IMG/VR virus record: IMGVR_UViG_2548876963_000010
Strand: one strand, 5' to 3'
Length of the DNA: 35,198 nt
Source: a virus
Taxonomy: Duplodnaviria > Heunggongvirae > Uroviricota > Caudoviricetes
Shown: positions 4,572 through 27,095 of the stretch, piece after piece
How positions within the stretch are numbered: the first letter of the stretch is position 1
Layout of the letters: every line of letters starts with the position of its first letter
The notes under the pieces: generated by a model
Database searches by the model: none
Told to the model about the DNA's origin: nothing
The model's input: only the letters and a program-made list of their open reading frames with translations
Position numbers and translations under genes: made by a program

Positions 4572-4802
4572 TTACGCGATTTTCTGCTTTTGCAGAAATT
4601 GCCCGCGTGTGGATAGCGGTATGTGTATCTTAGGATTCGGGCAACCGCTGGGTACTACCGTTCCCATCACGGTCTCCATCGCGATAAATGAAAACGAACA
4701 GTTAACGTTCTTGCACTGGTAATAGAGCTTACGTACCAGCGGTGACATATATTCGCTGCTGCGAATTATCGCCTTACCGTCGCAGTGTGGGCATTTCATC
4801 AT
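4572..4802 (-). CDS. ogr: Ogr/Delta-family zinc-finger late transcription activator
   Basis: MMKCPHCDGKA...YYQCKNVNCSFSF matches the C-x2-C...C-x4-C Ogr zinc-finger pattern (P2 Ogr has CPLCQH...HQCQNVNCSATF); strong RBS TAAGGAGA 6 nt upstream of ATG at 4802; the listed ORF start at 4820 is a GTG inside the RBS. Confidence 0.85.
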   Translation of the reverse strand: MMKCPHCDGKAIIRSSEYMSPLVRKLYYQCKNVNCSFSFIAMETVMGTVVPSGCPNPKIHIPLSTRGQFLQKQKIA

Positions 4803-5125: not shown

Positions 5126-5464
5126 ATGAAAGAATTTGGCATCCGTTTGAAGGAAGAACGTATCCGACTTGGACTTGATCAAGACGGCTTTGGACAACTT
5201 GGGGGCGTGAAGAAAAACGCACAAAGCAACTATGAGAATGGGTTGCGTAAGCCGGACAGTGACTATCTTGCTGGCATAGCGGCAGCGGGAGTTGATGTTC
5301 TGTATGTTCTAACAGGCAACCGCACGCCTGTAGTTACGTTGTCCAGTAAAGAGAGTGTGTTGGTGGAAAACTATCGTTCTGCTACGCCAGAACACCAGTC
5401 CACCCTTGACACGGTTAGCGCTGCGCTTGCGCAACCGGGAGTAGGGAAAGCAGCTAAGGGATAA
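5126..5464 (+). CDS. XRE-family helix-turn-helix regulator, putative immunity repressor (C-like)
   Basis: 112 aa; N-terminal HTH-like region with QSNYENGLRKPDSDYLAGIAAAGVDVLYVLTG; divergent arrangement with RHH gene across an 80-bp AT-rich switch region. Confidence 0.7.
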   Translation: MKEFGIRLKEERIRLGLDQDGFGQLGGVKKNAQSNYENGLRKPDSDYLAGIAAAGVDVLYVLTGNRTPVVTLSSKESVLVENYRSATPEHQSTLDTVSAALAQPGVGKAAKG

Positions 5465-5504
5465 CGAGTAGAATGAATTTGGTTATTGTCTGTATGGAGG
5501 CAAA

Positions 5505-6077
5505 ATGAAGTTGAATAATCTGGTTGCTCTTTACAGGAACATGACAGAGCAAAAATTGGATAGGGTTAAATTCCCATACAGACACAATAATTTACATTTT
5601 GATGTATTTTTCTTTATTGATGGAAAACCGTTTGAGCTTCTTTTCGGAGCATTAGGCGCTAATCTTTGCTTTCGTCTAAAAGTCGAGAAGGGATTCGTCA
5701 TAAATCCTAATCTGGGAAGTGAGACTTATAAAGAATTATGCAAGGCTCTAGGTTTGAAATATGACCCTGCCAATCCATTTAGAACAAGTAAGTTTTTTGA
5801 AGATTTTGATGGGAAAATCCCTCCATCGGTTACTGTTAAGAATAAGGCAAAATATACTGATATTGCTGTGCATGTCAGGGATGTTGAAGAAGCAGACAGA
5901 ATATATTTCTGTGGATGGAAAAACAACAATGAAGAAAAGAGTCATGTTACTGAAGATAATTTAAAGAAAACGAAAGAGTTTTTAGGGTATCAGGCTTTTC
6001 TTGTTTGTAAGGAAAAGAATATTAGCAGTAGATGGACTGATTTAGAAAATAAAGCGAAAGATTTTTATTTACCATAG
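5505..6077 (+). CDS. Hypothetical protein (190 aa), first gene of AT-rich cargo cassette
   Basis: ORF with GGAGG RBS 8 nt upstream; markedly AT-rich codon usage compared with flanking phage genes; no motif recognised. Confidence 0.6.
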   Translation: MKLNNLVALYRNMTEQKLDRVKFPYRHNNLHFDVFFFIDGKPFELLFGALGANLCFRLKVEKGFVINPNLGSETYKELCKALGLKYDPANPFRTSKFFEDFDGKIPPSVTVKNKAKYTDIAVHVRDVEEADRIYFCGWKNNNEEKSHVTEDNLKKTKEFLGYQAFLVCKEKNISSRWTDLENKAKDFYLP

Positions 6078-6091
6078 GATTGTGAGGTTAT

Positions 6092-7240
6092 ATGTCTGAT
6101 ATTTCATTAGGGTGCGTGGTTGTTCATAGGTTGATAAAAGAGCAACATAAAGATTTCGATCACTCAAAACCATATAGTCGCCGTGATACGGTTCTTGACC
6201 GAAATAATGAAATCGTAATTAAACTAGTGTCCAGTATAGCCGCATTGTATGGTAAAAAATCTAATAGCTCGCATTATGGTATATTTAATTTAGATGAAAC
6301 ACGTAGGGGGCCTTTTCCAGCGGCATTTGATAAATATCGGAATGATACATCCAAGAAGTTAGACGATGAATTGTTTATAGGATTATCAAAAAATGTTATG
6401 CATCAGTTATATATTGAGGCAAAGGATCGACCTGCTGCATCAGGAGGATTACTTCTTTTTGCTGATTATATCAGTAAATCCGTGCGTTACTTTCTTATTG
6501 CAATGATTAAGCAAAAGGAAGGTATAGTTATTAGTGATAAATTAGAACCAAAGGAGTTAGAGCATCTTGATCTGGCAAAACTAAATCAGGCGGCACGAAT
6601 AAACTATGATTTGTATGATAAATATATTTCCGCTGATGAGAATGAAAGACAGGATGTTAATTATTTAAGTTTTGTTAGTCCCAGTTCTAACCAGACAACT
6701 TCAGGGTATTTCATTACTGCCTTAGGTTGTGATAAAGGTAATACATCAACTAAAGCTACGAGTAATTTAATTAATGAATCTTTTAACTTCTTCAGAAATC
6801 ATCAAGAATTAAAGGATAATGCCCGTAAATTTAAAAATGAAATTATTGAGTATTTATTCGATTGTTCTGAGAATAACATTTCAGCTAAGCTCTCTGTTGT
6901 TAGTGAGATGGCAGCGAAGCATATGGTTAATTTAGAAGATGACATTAAAGATAAATTGTCAGAAGAATTATATGCTCATTTGAATAGTGAAAGTATTCGT
7001 GTGCCTGTGGAATTTAGGGTAAGCAAATCAGTAGTTAAGAAAAACAGAAATATTAAATATACAAGTGATAATGTTAATTTTGAGTTTAAATCTAGTTTAC
7101 TAGGCAATACGCTTGATAATGAGATATGCTATAATAAGAAAACTGGACATTTAACTTTTACTCGGATTACTCCTGAGAAAAAAAGTGAAATAGCTCAATT
7201 GCTTGATGAGTTAATAAAAGAAAGAAATAGCGAAAAATAA
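6092..7240 (+). CDS. YejK/NdpA-like (nucleoid-associated protein family) protein, 382 aa
   Basis: N-terminal VVVHRLIKEQHK (cf. E. coli YejK ALHQLIKRDEQ, recalled from memory), SIAALYGKKSNSSHYGIF (cf. ELHRVYSAKNKAYGLF) and ASGGLLLFADYISKSVRYFLIAMI (cf. [24 protein letters not shown]); RBS GTGAGG upstream. Confidence 0.6.
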   Translation: MSDISLGCVVVHRLIKEQHKDFDHSKPYSRRDTVLDRNNEIVIKLVSSIAALYGKKSNSSHYGIFNLDETRRGPFPAAFDKYRNDTSKKLDDELFIGLSKNVMHQLYIEAKDRPAASGGLLLFADYISKSVRYFLIAMIKQKEGIVISDKLEPKELEHLDLAKLNQAARINYDLYDKYISADENERQDVNYLSFVSPSSNQTTSGYFITALGCDKGNTSTKATSNLINESFNFFRNHQELKDNARKFKNEIIEYLFDCSENNISAKLSVVSEMAAKHMVNLEDDIKDKLSEELYAHLNSESIRVPVEFRVSKSVVKKNRNIKYTSDNVNFEFKSSLLGNTLDNEICYNKKTGHLTFTRITPEKKSEIAQLLDELIKERNSEK

Positions 7241-7251
7241 GGTTGCTTAAT

Positions 7252-8508
7252 ATGTCATGTTTTGAAACGGTTGTTGAGCTTTTCAGATATGTAGGGCGTC
7301 CTAAATTTGATGCTATTAATAATCGTTTTTCAGCAACTATTTCTTATGATGCTCATATATATGAACTCTTAGTTTCTTTGCAACCTCATACCGCGTGGGG
7401 AGAAATTGAAGAGATTGTCATTGATGATGTGGATATAGATGTTGATGATAGCCTTCCCGCTAAAGGAACATCAATAACACTGACAATCTCTATATCAACT
7501 GGAGCCAGTGAGTCATTTTTTATCGATATTAAAGATCTAATTCAAAAGTCTCCGATGTTAAATAGAGGTATTTTAAGAAAGTCTTTTTACTTGGTTGAGG
7601 AAGATTTTTATTTTAATGAAGGAATGGTTGAGGGATTAGCAAAAATACCAGAACTATCTGTTTTAAAAAATCTTTGTGATTTTATTTTATGTCTATCAAA
7701 AGTTGCACACTACAGCAATAGTAAAAGTGATGATGTATGCCATAAGTTAGTTTTCTTGAAAAATACTAATGCTAAGTCATTACCTTTAATTATTGAAACT
7801 AATGTTGATTATTCACTTCTTTTAACAGGTATTAAGGATTTAAAAATCATCGAATCTTTTTCTGATGAAAAAAAAGCTATAACGGATGATAATTATTTTG
7901 AGCGAAAAGGGATTTTCATTAATACGGTGGTCGATTTTCTTGAATCAATCGATGTAAAGAAACAGTTTCATTTTTTATTCTGTGAGTGGGATGAATTTCT
8001 AAAACTATACCATAATAACCTCGGTGTATATCTTAGTGGTTTTTCATTTCATAAAGTAAGAAAGGAAGTGGCAGAGGCAGAAGCTAATTTAGCTGAGCGT
8101 TTTTCAAAAATAATGTCAGACATGATAGCTAAGCTTTTAGGTATTCCTGTTTCTTTGGTTGCTACTTTTGGCATGATAAAATTAAATACCCTGCCGGAAA
8201 TGTTAGTGGTTTTTTTAGGTGTATTGCTCACGTCGATAATTATGTTTTTTATTGTAAGAAGTCAATACACACAGTTTAGGATGATTTGTGATGCTAAAGA
8301 TATTATATTTTCCCCATTAGTGAAAAAATCTGTAGGTTATACAGAAGATTTGAAAAAATTAGTATGCAATGCAAAGGATAATTTAGACAAAAATCAGGTC
8401 ATGTTAAATCGTTACCTTCTTTTCTTTCAATGCTTATGCTGGATTCCGACAGCCTTAGGTGGTGGAATGATCTTAATGGCTATTATGGTTCATTTAGGAT
8501 TACTATAA
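7252..8508 (+). CDS. Hypothetical protein (418 aa) with C-terminal transmembrane helices
   Basis: ATG at 7252 (listed ORF starts at a TTG at 7243); hydrophobic stretches IPVSLVATFGMIKL...MLVVFLGVLLTSIIMFFIV and YLLFFQCLCWIPTALGGGMILMAIMVHLGLL at the C-terminus; AT-rich. Confidence 0.6.
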   Translation: MSCFETVVELFRYVGRPKFDAINNRFSATISYDAHIYELLVSLQPHTAWGEIEEIVIDDVDIDVDDSLPAKGTSITLTISISTGASESFFIDIKDLIQKSPMLNRGILRKSFYLVEEDFYFNEGMVEGLAKIPELSVLKNLCDFILCLSKVAHYSNSKSDDVCHKLVFLKNTNAKSLPLIIETNVDYSLLLTGIKDLKIIESFSDEKKAITDDNYFERKGIFINTVVDFLESIDVKKQFHFLFCEWDEFLKLYHNNLGVYLSGFSFHKVRKEVAEAEANLAERFSKIMSDMIAKLLGIPVSLVATFGMIKLNTLPEMLVVFLGVLLTSIIMFFIVRSQYTQFRMICDAKDIIFSPLVKKSVGYTEDLKKLVCNAKDNLDKNQVMLNRYLLFFQCLCWIPTALGGGMILMAIMVHLGLL

Positions 8509-13315: not shown

Positions 13316-13831
13316 TTACAGGCCAATGGCGCGACGTGCGCCAGCCAGACGGTCTTTGCCGTCGATATTTTCAATAAAGTTCACGGTGTCGATTTCGACG
13401 ATGGTTTCACCGTTGACGCTCTCTTTGTAATAGGTACAAAGGGTGCTGATTTTGGTCGCGGAGTTCTCGCCCTGCTTGTATTCGCCGCGATCCAGCTCTT
13501 TGTGGCGACCACGCACCACGATTTCCACCGCGTCGTACTCTTCGCTGTCTTCACGCTGGATTGCGCCGGAGAATCGCAGCATCACGCCGCTGATCTTCGT
13601 CCAACCGATCTGCCGCAGCGCCAGCAGCTCATAGCCGCCGATTGACCATTCCACGCTGAGCGCCTCGTCATCCAGCCCCAGATCGACATGCGCCGCGCCG
13701 TTCATCCCGCCGCCGCGATAGGCTTCCAGCTTGCGCGTCAGCTTTGCCGGGGTGAAGGACTCCACCTGTGCCAGATAGATATCGCCCTCGTTAAACAGGT
13801 TGAGGTATTTCAGTTTGCTGGGTAGTGCCAT
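13316..13831 (-). CDS. FII: Tail tube protein (P2 gpFII-like)
   Basis: 171 aa; size and position between sheath and E. Confidence 0.85.
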   Translation of the reverse strand: MALPSKLKYLNLFNEGDIYLAQVESFTPAKLTRKLEAYRGGGMNGAAHVDLGLDDEALSVEWSIGGYELLALRQIGWTKISGVMLRFSGAIQREDSEEYDAVEIVVRGRHKELDRGEYKQGENSATKISTLCTYYKESVNGETIVEIDTVNFIENIDGKDRLAGARRAIGL

Positions 13832-13845
13832 GGTGCGTTCTCCTG

Positions 13846-15024
13846 TTACACGGTGGTGGCGATGGATTCAGCCAGATTGACCAGATAGCGGTCAGTAATG
13901 CGCTGGCGGAACATCAGGTTTTCCAGCGGCGGCACCGGGGTGTAGTCGTAGTCGATATACGCTTTACCCGCTTTCAGGATGTCCGGCGTGTTGGCGGAGG
14001 GATCGAACCATGCGGAACCATCGACGATGTAGCCGTTGCCTTTCAGTTCGCGGAATTTGGCGTTCACGCCTTCGATAATGTCGCGGAACAGAGAAGCGTG
14101 TTGCGGTTTATCTACCGCCCAGAAGTGGGCGTCGGCGATGGTATCCGCCAGCACCTGCGCGGTGCGGGTGTAGTTCTCAAAGGCAAACAGCGGATCGGTG
14201 CTGCAGGTGCGCGATCCCCAGAAGCGATAGCCGCCGTTGCAAATCAGCGTGGTGACGTCGTGGCTGTTGAGGTAATCCGAATCGGTGGCGGTGGACTGCA
14301 GATCCCAGAATACGCTGCGGGAAATGCCAGTCACGCCGTTGACGTCAACGTTGGACAGCGTTTTATGCCAGCCGATTTCTTCATCAATTTTTGCACGCAG
14401 GCCCACGGCACGGGCGGTGGCGTACAGCGTGTGTTCGGCAGCAGCCTGCGTATCAAAGCCGACAAAATCCGGCCAGATAATCATCGCCTCCCGTGCGCCG
14501 AGCTGATCGCGATACAGCACCGCCTCTTCTTTGGTCTGCGCGCCGAACGCCGACAGATAGCTGAAGGCGCGAAGCTGCTGTGAAATGCTGACCAGTTCGG
14601 TGGCGACAGGCAGAGAATCCAGCCCCGGTACCGCCAGAATGCGCGGTTTTATTTTCAGTTTGGTTTGCGAGTCCAGCAGCGCCTTCATGCCGGTGTATTT
14701 CCCGGCTGGCGTGCTGCCGCCGATGATATTGGCGGTGGTTTCGGCGGCGGAGTCGCCTTCGGCTACGCGCACGGCGACTACCACCGGCTGCGTCTGGTCG
14801 GCGATGGCATCCAGAGAGTGCGCCAGCGTACCGCTATCACCGGCTTTACCCAGCGCAGATCGCACGTCGGTTAACAGTACCGGGGTATCAAGGGGAAAGG
14901 TTTTTTCATCGGCGTCTGATCCGGTGCAGACGATGCCGATCACGGCGGTGGAGATGGTACGGATCGGGCGTACGCCTTCATTGATTTCAATAACGCGCGC
15001 GCCGTGGTGGTAGTCGGTTGCCAT
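13846..15024 (-). CDS. FI: Tail sheath protein (P2 gpFI-like)
   Basis: Start placed at ATG 15024 (MATDYHHGARVIEI...) preceded by GGAGG; ~393 aa; first gene of tail operon. Confidence 0.9.
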   Translation of the reverse strand: MATDYHHGARVIEINEGVRPIRTISTAVIGIVCTGSDADEKTFPLDTPVLLTDVRSALGKAGDSGTLAHSLDAIADQTQPVVVAVRVAEGDSAAETTANIIGGSTPAGKYTGMKALLDSQTKLKIKPRILAVPGLDSLPVATELVSISQQLRAFSYLSAFGAQTKEEAVLYRDQLGAREAMIIWPDFVGFDTQAAAEHTLYATARAVGLRAKIDEEIGWHKTLSNVDVNGVTGISRSVFWDLQSTATDSDYLNSHDVTTLICNGGYRFWGSRTCSTDPLFAFENYTRTAQVLADTIADAHFWAVDKPQHASLFRDIIEGVNAKFRELKGNGYIVDGSAWFDPSANTPDILKAGKAYIDYDYTPVPPLENLMFRQRITDRYLVNLAESIATTV

Positions 15025-15087
15025 AGGGCTGGCCTCCATCAGGTCAATAAATGACGATGGTGGCACAGAGCGAAAAGGGCGGTGACG

Positions 15088-15124
15088 GCTTCCACTTGTA
15101 ACCACTGGCACTACAAGCAGAAGC
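15088..15124. promoter_or_regulatory. Late-promoter-like dyad upstream of FI operon (TGT-N13-ACA within 13-bp imperfect inverted repeat)
   Basis: gcttccacTTGTAaccactggcacTACAAgcagaagc; TGT 15097-15099, ACA 15113-15115. Confidence 0.55.
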
Positions 15125-15129
15125 GGTTT

Positions 15130-15888
15130 TTAATTCAGGATAATCAGTTCTGATGTGGCGCTGGCTGGCTTTCCGCCTACGGTATAGCGAATCCCTACCG
15201 TTGAGAATGTCAGGCCGTGGAAGATATCGCGCATTTCCGGGATGTCATTAACCGAGATAATCATCCGGCCCTGCATGGTGCGCGCCAGCTCTGCCATTCG
15301 CTGGTACTGCTCAAGGCCAAATGGTACGCCGTAGCCTTCGGTTTTCCAGTATGGAGGGTCGCAGTAGAACAGGGTATGCGGGCGGTCATAGCGGCGAATA
15401 CATTCGGCCCAGTCCAGATTTTCAATACAGACGCGCGCCAGCCGCAGATGGGCGGCGGATAAATCCTCTTCCATACGCAGCAGGTTCAGGCGCGGCGGTG
15501 AGGTGGTGGCGGTACCGAATGTGCGACTTTCCACTTTGCCGCCGAATGCCAGCTTTTGCAGATAGTAGAAGCGCGCCGCGCGCTGGATATCGGTCAGCGT
15601 TTCTTCCGGGGTGATCTGGAGCCAGCGGTACATTTCGCGGCTGACCAGCGACCATTTAAACTGGCGGACAAACTCTTCTAAATGGTGCTGGAGTACGCGG
15701 TAGAGGTTGGTAACGTCGCCGTTGATATCATTCAGCACCTCGGCCTGTGCGGGCTGTTTCATAAAGAACAACGCCGCCGCCCCGCAGAACGGTTCAACGT
15801 AGCAGCGGTGTTTGGGAAACAGCGGCAGAATGTGTTTTGCCAGCCTGCGCTTACCGCCGATCCACGGAATAATGGGTAACGTATTCAT
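15130..15888 (-). CDS. dam: DNA adenine methyltransferase (Dam/D12 class N6-adenine MTase), orphan
   Basis: 252 aa; SAM-binding motif EPFCGAAALFF and catalytic DPPY in FYCDPPYW; no adjacent restriction endonuclease gene. Confidence 0.9.
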   Translation of the reverse strand: MNTLPIIPWIGGKRRLAKHILPLFPKHRCYVEPFCGAAALFFMKQPAQAEVLNDINGDVTNLYRVLQHHLEEFVRQFKWSLVSREMYRWLQITPEETLTDIQRAARFYYLQKLAFGGKVESRTFGTATTSPPRLNLLRMEEDLSAAHLRLARVCIENLDWAECIRRYDRPHTLFYCDPPYWKTEGYGVPFGLEQYQRMAELARTMQGRMIISVNDIPEMRDIFHGLTFSTVGIRYTVGGKPASATSELIILN

Positions 15889-16352
15889 ATTGTCAATTTT
15901 CCAGATCGACTGCAGATCAGTGCATACAGCAGATTAGGTGAATAACGCCAGCTATCACGCAGATGCAGAAATTCGGCGCAGAACTCGCTGCAAAACAGGC
16001 GCTCCTGTTTGCCCTGACTGAGTAACACAAAACCAATGGCACCCAGCCAGTCGTAACCTTTATCGTCGTGCTGACGGAAAAAGGTTTCCAGTGCCAGCGG
16101 ATCGGCGTTGATCGGGAGTAAATCCCATTTCTCAATCGGCAGCGGCATTCGTTTGCTGCGCACGCCTTTATCCCGTACCGATGATGAGTAACAGATAAAC
16201 AGGCCATCCGGCTGGCGTTCGACCAGTTCGCAGTGAGAGTAAGGGCCGCGCGTGACCTGTCGCGTCAGCCAGTCGGAGAGCCGGGCAAGGCTGAAAAAGC
16301 GTTCAGCCCGGCCACGGTAGAACGCCGCGTAAACCTGACTCATGGTTGCCAT
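15885..16352 (-). CDS. Hypothetical protein (155 aa) co-located with dam
   Basis: ATGA-overlapped with dam start, 13-bp overlap with G stop; Cys/His-containing (YSHCELV, CSEFC) but no family recognised. Confidence 0.55.
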   Translation of the reverse strand: MATMSQVYAAFYRGRAERFFSLARLSDWLTRQVTRGPYSHCELVERQPDGLFICYSSSVRDKGVRSKRMPLPIEKWDLLPINADPLALETFFRQHDDKGYDWLGAIGFVLLSQGKQERLFCSEFCAEFLHLRDSWRYSPNLLYALICSRSGKLTI

Positions 16353-25846: not shown

Positions 25847-26014
25847 TCAAGTGAAAAGGCTAAAACAGATCAGTACCAACTTCGTCTTGCTCATGAATTT
25901 AGAAAGCAGCTTGAAGAACAGGCTCGTAAAGATGGAGATACCTCTCTCGCAACATGGATAAAACGCGTTTTGCGTAAGGAACTTCAGTCACGAGGTATTG
26001 AACCCAAAGGATAA
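25844..26014 (+). CDS. Small ribbon-helix-helix (Arc/MetJ-like) DNA-binding protein, 56 aa
   Basis: Not in supplied ORF track (below its length cutoff); MSSEKAKTDQYQLRLAHEFRKQLEEQARKDGDTSLATWIKRVLRKELQSRGIEPKG: beta-strand then two helices as in Arc. Confidence 0.6.
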   Translation: MSSEKAKTDQYQLRLAHEFRKQLEEQARKDGDTSLATWIKRVLRKELQSRGIEPKG

Positions 26015-26115
26015 TTACGGAGATATCAAGCAGCGCTAAGAAGTTAGGATTATTTGTTCAGCCCAGATTAGTCGATATGCACTGATTAACTTAAACATTG
26101 TGTGTAGGAGGTGTT

Positions 26116-26769
26116 GTGGATATTGAATTTTTTCTTAAAGAGCGCACAAGATTCGTTACTTATTTCTATGAAACGGCTGCTGCACCATTTGTTAACATCA
26201 TGAATGATATTGAGAATGAAGTGGAACCTTATATTCAGCCGTATGGTGAGAGTGATGAACCAGCTTTTTTAGATGAATGGTTAGATGCAAAGTCGGGATT
26301 AGAAACCTGTGGGCACCATGCATTATCGATGCTTTCGTCTTCTCTTCAGTTGTACCTGAAGGCGTGGGTAGATCGCTTAGGATATCATAGCGTGAAATCT
26401 GATATAAATTTCAAGAAGGGTTGGTTTAATGGCTATCGTGAAATTTTCAACAAAATTGAGTTGGAAATGGCAAAATGTCCTGCAAATTTGGAAATAATTG
26501 AACAAATTCCCTTGGTGAGAAATCGTGTCCAGCATCCTGAGGAACTTACCTCAATTAATATTTCTCACTCAAAAAATGACTTGGAAAAATATCCTCGCCC
26601 ATACTTTATTCAGGAGTGTGAGCTACTTTTGGCTTCCGAACAGGAAGAAAAATCGTGGTTATTCCCACCTACAATATCCCCGACTAAAGAGAAAATATTC
26701 GAAGCTATCAGAAATGTTGAAATGCTGTGCTCTTGGTTAGAGTCTGAGTATTGGTCGGCTCTTGACTAA
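26116..26769 (+). CDS. Hypothetical protein (217 aa) with R-x4-H motif, possible HEPN-domain protein
   Basis: GTG start at 26116 with AGGAGG 6 nt upstream (ORF track lists 26098); AT-rich; motif VRNRVQHPEE (R-x4-H). Confidence 0.55.
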   Translation: MDIEFFLKERTRFVTYFYETAAAPFVNIMNDIENEVEPYIQPYGESDEPAFLDEWLDAKSGLETCGHHALSMLSSSLQLYLKAWVDRLGYHSVKSDINFKKGWFNGYREIFNKIELEMAKCPANLEIIEQIPLVRNRVQHPEELTSINISHSKNDLEKYPRPYFIQECELLLASEQEEKSWLFPPTISPTKEKIFEAIRNVEMLCSWLESEYWSALD

Positions 26770-26858
26770 ATGTAGAATAGAGTAAGTCAGCGTCAAATGA
26801 AAACAGCCCGACGAATCGGGCTATTATGGCTATCAGGCAAACACTACCTTCAAACTCA

Positions 26859-27095
26859 TTATGCCGCCTCAATACCCGCTCTGGTTAACATATAGTGGCC
26901 CCAGTGGGTTTTCTTCAGATAACCGGCCAGTTCCATCTGTGTCACAATAAATTCAGCGTTAACTATTTCTATATCTGCGTAGTCGGCCAGATCGCGCAGC
27001 GGCCATGTGCTGCGAACGCCGACGCTAACTATGGTATCTCTGATGCGGCGAGCGGTATCGGTCATTGGGCGGGTTCTGGCTGCCTGAATAGTCAT
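26859..27095 (-). CDS. Hypothetical small protein (78 aa), possible winged-helix DNA binding
   Basis: ATG at 27095 with GGGGAA upstream (listed ORF begins at a GTG at 27134); not part of canonical P2 L-X interval. Confidence 0.45.
   Translation of the reverse strand: MTIQAARTRPMTDTARRIRDTIVSVGVRSTWPLRDLADYADIEIVNAEFIVTQMELAGYLKKTHWGHYMLTRAGIEAA

Follow-up and report, generated by a model that had tools for sequence, protein, structure and literature searches.

Two adjoining genes of a P2-like prophage, one for a small protein that is called X below and one for an adenine DNA methyltransferase (the methylase), are probably best explained together as functionally independent accessory genes added at the 3' end of the late tail operon of P2 type (V-W-J-I-H-G). 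In the virus record IMGVR_UViG_2548876963_000010, a stretch of 35,198 nucleotides (nt) that is called the window here, the pair is flanked by the genes for tail fibre assembly and tail sheath. Both open reading frames (ORFs) are real, conserved and under purifying selection. Judging from its predicted fold, X looks like an active enzyme of the permuted NlpC/P60 superfamily. Comparison with a sister prophage indicates that X is part of an exchangeable host-range cassette, with the fibre tip and the assembly protein, and that the methylase is not. The methylase is, from its family matches, a predicted orphan N6-methyladenine (m6A) DNA methyltransferase of the B3 ORF48 family. It holds nothing very surprising to a phage specialist, while X is a concrete, testable lead.

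An initial annotation of the window had drawn two ORFs between the assembly gene and the sheath gene, at 15130-15888 (252 amino acids, aa) and at 15885-16352 (155 aa), and both are present there, on the minus strand. The second is a real ORF, with an upstream ATG at 16352, but its length most likely has to be corrected to 152 aa. The start of X is placed at the second ATG (16343) because this codon has AGGA 8 nt upstream, overlaps the stop of the assembly gene as ATGA, and coincides with the start of the homologues and of RefSeq WP_000084748.1. The ATG of the methylase (15888) overlaps the TGA of X in the same way. These ATGA overlaps indicate translational coupling in a single string of genes that closes the late operon: fibre, assembly protein, X and methylase. 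The two genes, described before as co-transcribed, are thus very probably co-expressed, and their co-transcription is inferred. A promoter and terminator scan found no terminator-like or convincing promoter-like sites above chance inside the string or in the spacer that follows it. The G+C content (GC) of the slot (54-56%) is backbone-like, in contrast to the AT-rich islands found elsewhere in the window. We do not take the sigma-70-like match at 15896-15869 for a promoter of the methylase, since its -10 element falls within the methylase coding sequence and the number of such matches equals the chance expectation.

P2 carries Z/fun at the G-FI junction, where P2-like phages are known to hold genes gained by horizontal transfer. 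The pair sits at the equivalent place, as had been proposed, given the established gene order of P2. The genes are different from Z/fun, with no evidence of homology. Moreover, the pair is found on the late-operon strand, is coupled and has backbone-like GC, unlike an AT-rich, independently transcribed moron. Accessory hotspots within tail genes have been mentioned (PMC13586616), although neither the G-FI slot nor methylases are specifically discussed in the papers on P2/P4 hotspots.

Family, predicted fold and genomic company of X

X gave no match in Pfam (E<=0.1), NCBIfam or PADLOC, and 31 diverse homologues, scanned with Pfam at E<=1, yielded nothing meaningful, including no match to PF05708 (Peptidase_C92). 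The only library match was phrog_1128, labelled 'enoyl-CoA hydratase/carnithine racemase-like'. Conservation of the small ORF, on which the initial annotation had made its reality depend, is nonetheless clear: a word-indexed search retrieved 46 homologues and an exhaustive search 4630 cluster representatives at E<=1e-3, those listed in the latter being nearly all single-domain proteins of 132-187 aa, and the ratio of non-synonymous to synonymous substitutions (dN/dS) is 0.16. Since neither X nor the 31 homologues match PF05708, X is filed apart from C92, and sequence comparison makes it a separate, uncurated and mislabelled family within a known superfamily.

In an alignment of 28 homologues a His, a Cys, a Tyr and several charged residues are invariant. 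The AlphaFold2 model built from this alignment (pLDDT 89, pTM 0.86) has a papain-like NlpC/P60 core that is circularly permuted, with the His before the Cys. Fold-comparison figures for the model are highest for Escherichia coli YiiX (2if6, 11.9) and the Bacillus cereus 'cysteine peptidase' BcPPNE (3kw0, 11.0), followed by Aichivirus 2A (7.6), TseH (7.4), MARTX RID (6.6) and PLAAT4 (6.4). The lowest figures listed are those for the PPPDE deSUMOylase (5.9) and Cln5 (5.3). A single-sequence search of the PDB sequences with X found no match; the profile of the family reached 3kw0 at E 8e-5. From the alignment of the profile with 3kw0, residues were mapped onto the numbering of Xu et al. 2011 (PMC3142127). 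His37 of X corresponds to the catalytic His49 of BcPPNE, and Cys118, where a helix is predicted to begin, to Cys154 of BcPPNE and Cys128 of YiiX. The invariant Tyr97, in a YDW motif, corresponds to the signature Tyr115 of YiiX, 13 residues before the catalytic Cys of that enzyme. The small protein had first been described as having no obvious role; this is not supported by the structure prediction proposed at the time, as fold and catalytic residues are those of permuted NlpC/P60 enzymes.

X therefore invites comparison with the YaeF/YiiX-like enzymes (PPNEs). Both have the His-before-Cys permutation, aligned catalytic His and Cys and signature Tyr, and the form of a small soluble single-domain protein. 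However, X has about 150 aa instead of 180-200, lacks a PF05708 match, does not conserve the triad Glu at the aligned position and has invariant motifs of its own (YSHxE, SxSxRDxGVRxK, YDxxG and FCSE). It is also phage-borne, in a fixed place behind the gene for tail fibre assembly, and no such context has been described for PPNEs. The chemistry proposed for X, by way of a Cys-His acyl-thioester, is that of LRAT/PLAAT (H-rev107), Staphylococcus aureus LnsA, MARTX RID and Cln5. Their similarity to X is structural and remote, with no relation at the sequence level, and X has no evident membrane anchor or partner such as LnsB.

The neighbourhood of X was surveyed at 81 non-redundant loci from one-genome-per-species and other collections. 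The 80 loci retrieved with a 15-sequence alignment are biased toward the TRGxYSHCE / CYSSSxRDxG subfamily. In 66 of the 76 assessable loci the start of X meets the end of a same-strand ORF of the tail fibre assembly family, in 59 of them within -5 to +10 nt. A separate Pfam scan assigned 30 of 62 ORFs upstream of X to DUF4376 and 7 to Caudo_TAP. The order fibre, assembly protein, X is found in P2-like prophages, in Mu-like phages (Haemophilus SuMu and a Uruburuella prophage), in Moraxella Mcat phages and in Pasteurella Pm86. A P1-like element has the order R, S, U-like, X, and the arrangement recurs at the end of another prophage. Such an association with a tail fibre cassette has not been described before for the permuted NlpC/P60 superfamily, and gp51, the X homologue of SuMu, is not mentioned in the main text of the SuMu paper.

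The genes within 1.3 kb downstream of X were assessed at 75 loci. A B3-type methylase is present at 13 of them (with a Com-like ORF in between at 7) and a Hia5-type methylase at 19 (10 with a Com-like ORF). The sheath gene follows at 7 loci, which thus have a bare P2 slot, and some other gene at 36 (3 with a Com-like ORF). In Mu-like phages X and methylase are separated by a gap of 100-400 bp that often holds the Com-like ORF, and the nearest enterobacterial homologues (Lelliottia, Serratia, Superficieibacter and Phytobacter) have no methylase. The frequency of this neighbour is best explained mostly by the architecture of Mu-like phages, in which the com-mom slot comes immediately after the tail fibre genes.

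Just upstream of the Hia5/Hin1523/Nma1821-type com-methylase units of SuMu, Haemophilus influenzae (L067) and Neisseria (L037, L049) an X homologue can be seen; the available parts of the paper on these units (PMC3299994) describe the com-methylase slot only, not the X homologue. Under Gram-positive labels, in a Bacillota metagenome-assembled genome (L014) and in Bacillus phage vB_BpuM-ZY1, there are also sequences with 56-66% identity to X, assembly protein and methylase of enterobacteria. These labels are probably binning or host-assignment errors.

The history of X can be read from the sister prophage L102, which has the same backbone as the window. At the amino-acid level the two are 90% identical in gpI, 93% in the sheath, 97% in the tube and 96% in the methylase, against 82% in the assembly protein and 68% in X. 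Nucleotide identity is 88-92% in backbone genes, 0-79% in the C-terminal half of the fibre (18100-17100), 75-78% in the C-terminal half of the assembly gene and 55-77% in X; from the 3' end of X into the methylase it is back at 82-92%. The C-terminal halves of the fibre and the assembly protein thus form with X one mosaic block. The dS of X is 1.5, compared with 0.3-0.6 in the flanks. Accelerated evolution of X was considered and discarded, as this high dS together with its low dN/dS indicates that an old, functional allele of X was imported by recombination with the fibre tip and its chaperone, whereas the methylase was kept with the backbone.

The orphan methylase

The methylase matches Pfam PF02086 (the D12 class) with 101.7 bits (cut-off 22, E 7.5e-29, residues 9-225), phrog_56 (DNA methyltransferase) at 2e-97 and the PADLOC model MTase_II PDLC03253 at 2.8e-115 over its full length, in agreement with the DPPY-type adenine methyltransferase first recognized here. 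Motif I (EPFCGAAA, residues 32-39) lies N-terminal to motif IV (DPPY, 177-180) and both align with the motifs of E. coli Dam. The methylase shares class and motif order with E. coli Dam, T4 Dam and DpnM, and its matches among PDB sequences have E values of about 1e-13 to 1e-14. A dN/dS of 0.03-0.11 indicates that the gene is maintained. It belongs to an already known kind, annotated as 'DNA adenine methylase' in RefSeq, and is routine in this respect.

The label 'Dam-type' given to it earlier is correct at the level of the D12 class, but not if taken to mean a GATC-specific Dam orthologue. This identity was rejected because the methylase stays below the NCBIfam cut-offs for Dam (106.4 versus 114.85 for TIGR00571; 62 versus 441 for NF008152) and the GATC-reading residues are not conserved in the alignment: G116, K118, E120 and S130 align with N120, L122, R124 and P134 of the E. 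coli Dam hairpin that reads GATC, in a loop whose alignment is modestly reliable. M.EcoGII and M.EcoGIX were also rejected as orthologues, the former being of the beta class and the latter plasmid-borne and specific for single-stranded DNA. No nuclease adjoins the methylase, whose neighbours are the sheath gene and X, for which the predicted fold is papain-like and PADLOC gave no match; the methylase therefore has no cognate nuclease beside it, as had been noted.

The family is large, with at least 7931 proteins at E<=1e-10. Beyond near-identical E. coli copies, the best-scoring homologues among the matches listed are about 72-81% identical and come from Beta- and Gammaproteobacteria. Phage homologues with 66-73% identity are found in Escherichia PhiKM, Klebsiella KP12, Vibrio VP882, Burkholderia phiE125 (gp27) and Pseudomonas B3 (ORF48). 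Those of B3, phiE125 and VP882, 66-67% identical over their full length, are likewise orphan phage cargo of the D12 class, B3 ORF48 having 66% identity over 100% of the query. A search of the literature on the specificity of the VP882, phiE125 and B3 enzymes found no experimental data. In B3, ORF48 is preceded by the translational regulator Com and the pair is inserted within the tail cluster. The window methylase also sits inside the tail gene cluster; however, it has neither a Com gene nor a promoter region of its own and is coupled to X, its ATG overlapping the X stop, which leaves no room for Com immediately upstream as in the ORF47-ORF48 arrangement.

Three other contexts of the methylase were sampled: a Pectobacterium Mu-like prophage, where it lies between lysis and early genes; the end of a Chromobacterium prophage, immediately 3' of an assembly gene; and a Salmonella contig, with a 72%-identical copy next to ArdC-type genes. 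Neither X nor a nuclease was present in any of the three. The wide family and these three contexts lead us to regard the methylase as free-moving orphan cargo. In Neisseriaceae prophages, copies 44-56% identical stand behind a Com-like ORF, after tail fibre genes.

Hia5, Hin1523 and Nma1821, non-specific m6A methylases at the mom slot of Mu-like prophages (PMC3299994), are also orphan methylases that replace Mom after tail fibre genes, and relatives of the Hia5 type lie downstream of X homologues at 19 loci. Nevertheless, they form a different subfamily. The window methylase gave no tblastn match to the SuMu and Haemophilus copies at 1e-3, and B3-type and Hia5-type methylases were retrieved as separate sets of matches (17 and 26 ORFs). 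The non-specificity of the Hia5 type is therefore not transferable to the window methylase.

The E. coli relative of the window, described below, has a second DNA adenine methylase of 270 aa, 32% identical to the one in the tail slot, together with a full DUF7673 gene, both in a segment (L001 3413-4828) between the integrase-side helix-turn-helix (HTH) gene and the toprim primase. In place of this segment of about 1.4 kb the window has about 0.37 kb (1463-1829), in which a 125-aa DUF7673 remnant is all that is left, and the tail-slot methylase is therefore the only one of the window.

Proposed functions and alternatives

According to the explanation that we favour, that of two independent accessory genes behind the tail operon, X and methylase would be expressed late through translational coupling. 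By analogy with its structural relatives, X would most likely form an acyl-thioester on Cys118, with His37 activating the cysteine and Tyr97 stabilising the carbonyl. Acting then on a lipid or on a lipidated or acylated substrate, it would hydrolyse a fatty-acyl-type group or transfer it. This proposal is made because the PPNEs cited here with known or proposed activity (YiiX, LnsA, LRAT/PLAAT, MARTX RID and Cln5) are lipid- or acyl-directed (PMC3142127, PMC7387801). For instance, the hydrophobic S1 pocket of crystallised YiiX contained a fatty acid, and YiiX was proposed to act as an amidase on lipidated substrates (PMC3142127), LnsA is required for the N-acylation of lipoproteins, and LRAT/PLAAT are phospholipases/acyltransferases (PMC7387801). 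Since X is inherited with the receptor-binding module, our best guess for its substrate would be an envelope lipid, a lipopolysaccharide (LPS) or lipoprotein component, or the complex of fibre and assembly protein. The absence of a signal peptide implies that any envelope target would be reached from the cytoplasmic side.

The methylase, as the last cistron of the tail operon, would be made late and would methylate replicated phage DNA before packaging. Restriction by the next host could thereby be blunted, an effect that Mom has in Mu and that has been proposed for the Hia5-type enzymes of Mu-like prophages. By analogy with Mom and the enzymes of the Hia5 type, an anti-restriction role is plausible, and the genomic context points the same way: the homologue behind Com in B3, the Com-like ORFs in Neisseriaceae prophages and the ArdC-type neighbours on the Salmonella contig. 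Where B3 and the Neisseriaceae loci have control by Com, coupling to X may stand in for it here.

Several points weigh against this explanation or against parts of it. With respect to X, the position aligned with the triad residue Glu64 of BcPPNE is a variable Ser/Ala in the family, with the invariant E39, S53, S55 and D58 nearby, and its structural neighbours in BFVD are all uncharacterised. How a cytoplasmic protein would gain access to outer-membrane receptors is not obvious. Two distant X homologues have no visible fibre genes alongside, and classic P2, Mu and P1 are absent among the phage records that match X, which indicates that X is not required for fibre assembly. A methylase follows X at 32 of the 75 loci (about 43%), a share that leaves some room for a functional link between the two, and at the remaining 57% there is none. 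Late, or late-only, expression of the pair is read from its position in the operon. As for the methylase, Drozdz et al. (PMC3299994) cite B3 ORF48 as a methylase in place of Mom for which there was no activity assay at the time.

A more specific role for X, which we consider possible though unlikely, is that of a functional third part of the host-range cassette, namely a Cys-His acyl-hydrolase or acyl-transferase of an undescribed family with about 4600 clusters at 50% identity. If this were true, X would lipid-modify or de-modify the complex of fibre and assembly protein. Alternatively, it would modify the LPS or lipooligosaccharide (LOS) receptor, preventing superinfection and the loss of progeny on debris, or would strip a host-attached modifier from tail proteins as a counter-defence. 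In any case X would have to co-vary with receptor specificity.

The conjugation of ubiquitin-like proteins to phage tail fibres by the host is a known defence. X could be a cysteine protease or deconjugase that trims or releases the complex of fibre and assembly protein or removes a ubiquitin-like tag from tail proteins, and its tight coupling to the assembly gene and co-inheritance with the fibre tip fit such a function. We think this quite improbable, however. The nearest structural relatives of X are lipid-binding PPNEs and not enzymes of the deubiquitinase type, no defence or anti-defence model matched X, many related phages build their fibres without it, and it partners several families of assembly protein (DUF4376, Caudo_TAP and unassigned ones).

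The initial annotation had treated X as the partner of the methylase, which raises the possibility of one functional module, with X as a cofactor, a regulator, a second DNA-modification enzyme (a Mom-like, acyl-type modification of adenine) or a methylation-controlled effector. The genes overlap by ATGA both in the window and in L102, the order X-then-methylase is repeated in SuMu, Uruburuella and Salmonella, and the D12-type methylases <=1.3 kb downstream of X belong to two distant subfamilies (13 B3-type and 19 Hia5-type, making up the 32 of 75). But each gene is met without the other: 57% of the X loci have no methylase, 7 have the sheath gene immediately downstream and the nearest enterobacterial relatives have none, while the methylase family is thousands strong and X was missing from all three other contexts sampled. 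The gap found in Mu-like phages, with its frequent Com-like ORF, suggests a separate com-methylase unit. In addition, the recombination histories are separate, X having been exchanged without the methylase (68% versus 96% identity to L102), and the predicted fold is papain-like, neither that of a nuclease nor of a GNAT enzyme. The partnership is thus disfavoured, and a module of this kind has in our opinion little chance of being correct.

Tail-linked NlpC/P60 domains exist, for instance in lambda gpK. As most characterised bacterial NlpC/P60 enzymes cut cell-wall peptides (PMC3142127), X could be a classical peptidoglycan hydrolase, a tail-associated or lysis-accessory endopeptidase for crossing or dissolving the cell wall. 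Nevertheless, X is permuted, His then Cys, and best matches YiiX and BcPPNE, the S1 pockets of which are hydrophobic and were judged unsuitable for peptides (PMC3142127). In its 152-aa single domain no signal peptide, transmembrane segment or cell-wall-binding domain was found, and the prophage already has a holin, an N-acetylmuramidase and LysB/LysC. This role, too, is very doubtful. Finally, there is next to no chance that X is an auxiliary metabolic gene similar to enoyl-CoA hydratase/carnitine racemase, a name borne by phrog_1128, SuMu gp51, Pm86 ORF70 and Ralstonia RP12 that seems to have been copied from the annotation of a Haemophilus parasuis genome, since a crotonase identity is refuted by the papain-like predicted fold, 152 aa is far below the length of a crotonase domain, and no crotonase/enoyl-CoA hydratase family of Pfam or NCBIfam matched X, nor one of Pfam the 31 diverse homologues.

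A widespread phage family without a Pfam model, which has gone under the wrong label of enoyl-CoA hydratase, now finds its place among the permuted NlpC/P60 enzymes, and its predicted active site is intact. Its members are nearly always attached to a tail fibre assembly gene, in P2-, Mu- and P1-like phages of Enterobacteriaceae, Pasteurellaceae, Neisseriaceae and Moraxellaceae, and by analogy the family points to a putative lipid- or acyl-directed step linked to the adsorption machinery of the phage. Besides annotation, this is relevant to the engineering of swapped tail fibre cassettes, because fibre tip and chaperone are accompanied by a third gene.

Gene layout and other accessory regions of the window

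The P2-like prophage extends from the integrase (1-1200) to the portal gene, with yfgI and yfgH, genes of the host, at the window's right end. A 97%-identical copy lies in E. coli 24A16CRGN010, adjoining guaA. Searches at the protein level were the informative ones, as a megablast of the region against the phage collection gave no matches. The features around the slot are collected in the table.

Features of the tail region around X and the methylase (positions in the window)
Feature	Position	Strand	Assignment or basis
gpI	18924-19538	minus	
Tail fibre (P2 H equivalent), 627 aa	17044-18927	minus	ORF list; annotated 'phage tail protein' in the relative
Tail fibre assembly protein (P2 G equivalent), 235 aa	16340-17047	minus	DUF4376 3.5e-12; Caudo_TAP at its threshold
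X, 152 aa	15885-16343	minus	Permuted NlpC/P60 (YiiX-like) Cys-His-Tyr putative enzyme; proposed catalytic His37, Cys118, Tyr97 (152-aa numbering)
Methylase, predicted orphan D12-class (alpha-group) N6-adenine DNA methyltransferase, 252 aa	15130-15888	minus	Pfam, PHROGs, PADLOC
Spacer, 105 bp, methylase stop to sheath ATG	15025-15129	minus	Sequence
Tail sheath (P2 FI equivalent), first gene of next operon	13846-15024	minus	Phage_sheath_1, Phage_sheath_1C, Gp18_domIII_N
Tube	13316-13831	minus	

The sheath gene is the downstream boundary of the cargo slot. Its ORF had been listed as 13846-15111; the gene really begins with the ATG at 15024, preceded at 7 nt by GGAGG and in agreement with the 392-aa RefSeq sheath of the 97%-identical E. 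coli prophage. The Ogr-dependent late promoters of P2 contain the dyad element TGT-N12-ACA. The spacer holds an inverted repeat, TTGTA-N11-TACAA, at 15096-15116, centred 82 nt upstream of the sheath ATG, which could be a candidate Ogr-type late promoter element of the sheath operon, with a spacing of N13 here.

Other accessory regions were observed in the window. An AT-rich island of about 3 kb (5126-8508; 28-35% GC versus about 57% in the backbone) between ogr (4575-4802) and gene D codes for one HTH protein, one DUF6037 protein, one nucleoid-associated protein of the NA37 type and one protein of 421 aa that matched no family. PADLOC matched no model there beyond weak HTH matches, and the island could be uncharacterised cargo or a defence island. 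The 421-aa ORF (7243-8508) is intact, whereas the annotation of its counterpart in the E. coli relative (L001 10254-11509) shows two ORFs, one of 209 aa and one of 193 aa. A frameshift in the relative would fit the translations, which part after '...SFSDEKK'. Another cargo slot in the tail cluster, between the baseplate V gene and the tail-completion genes, holds a HicB/HicA type II toxin-antitoxin pair (21498-22090, minus strand) that is 100% identical to the one in the relative. A second AT-rich patch (25500-27000, 38-43% GC), where the relative has YlcI/YnfO and a Doc toxin, holds a 57%-identical YlcI-like match (25850-26008) and a 223-aa ORF (26098-26769) with no match in Pfam or PADLOC.

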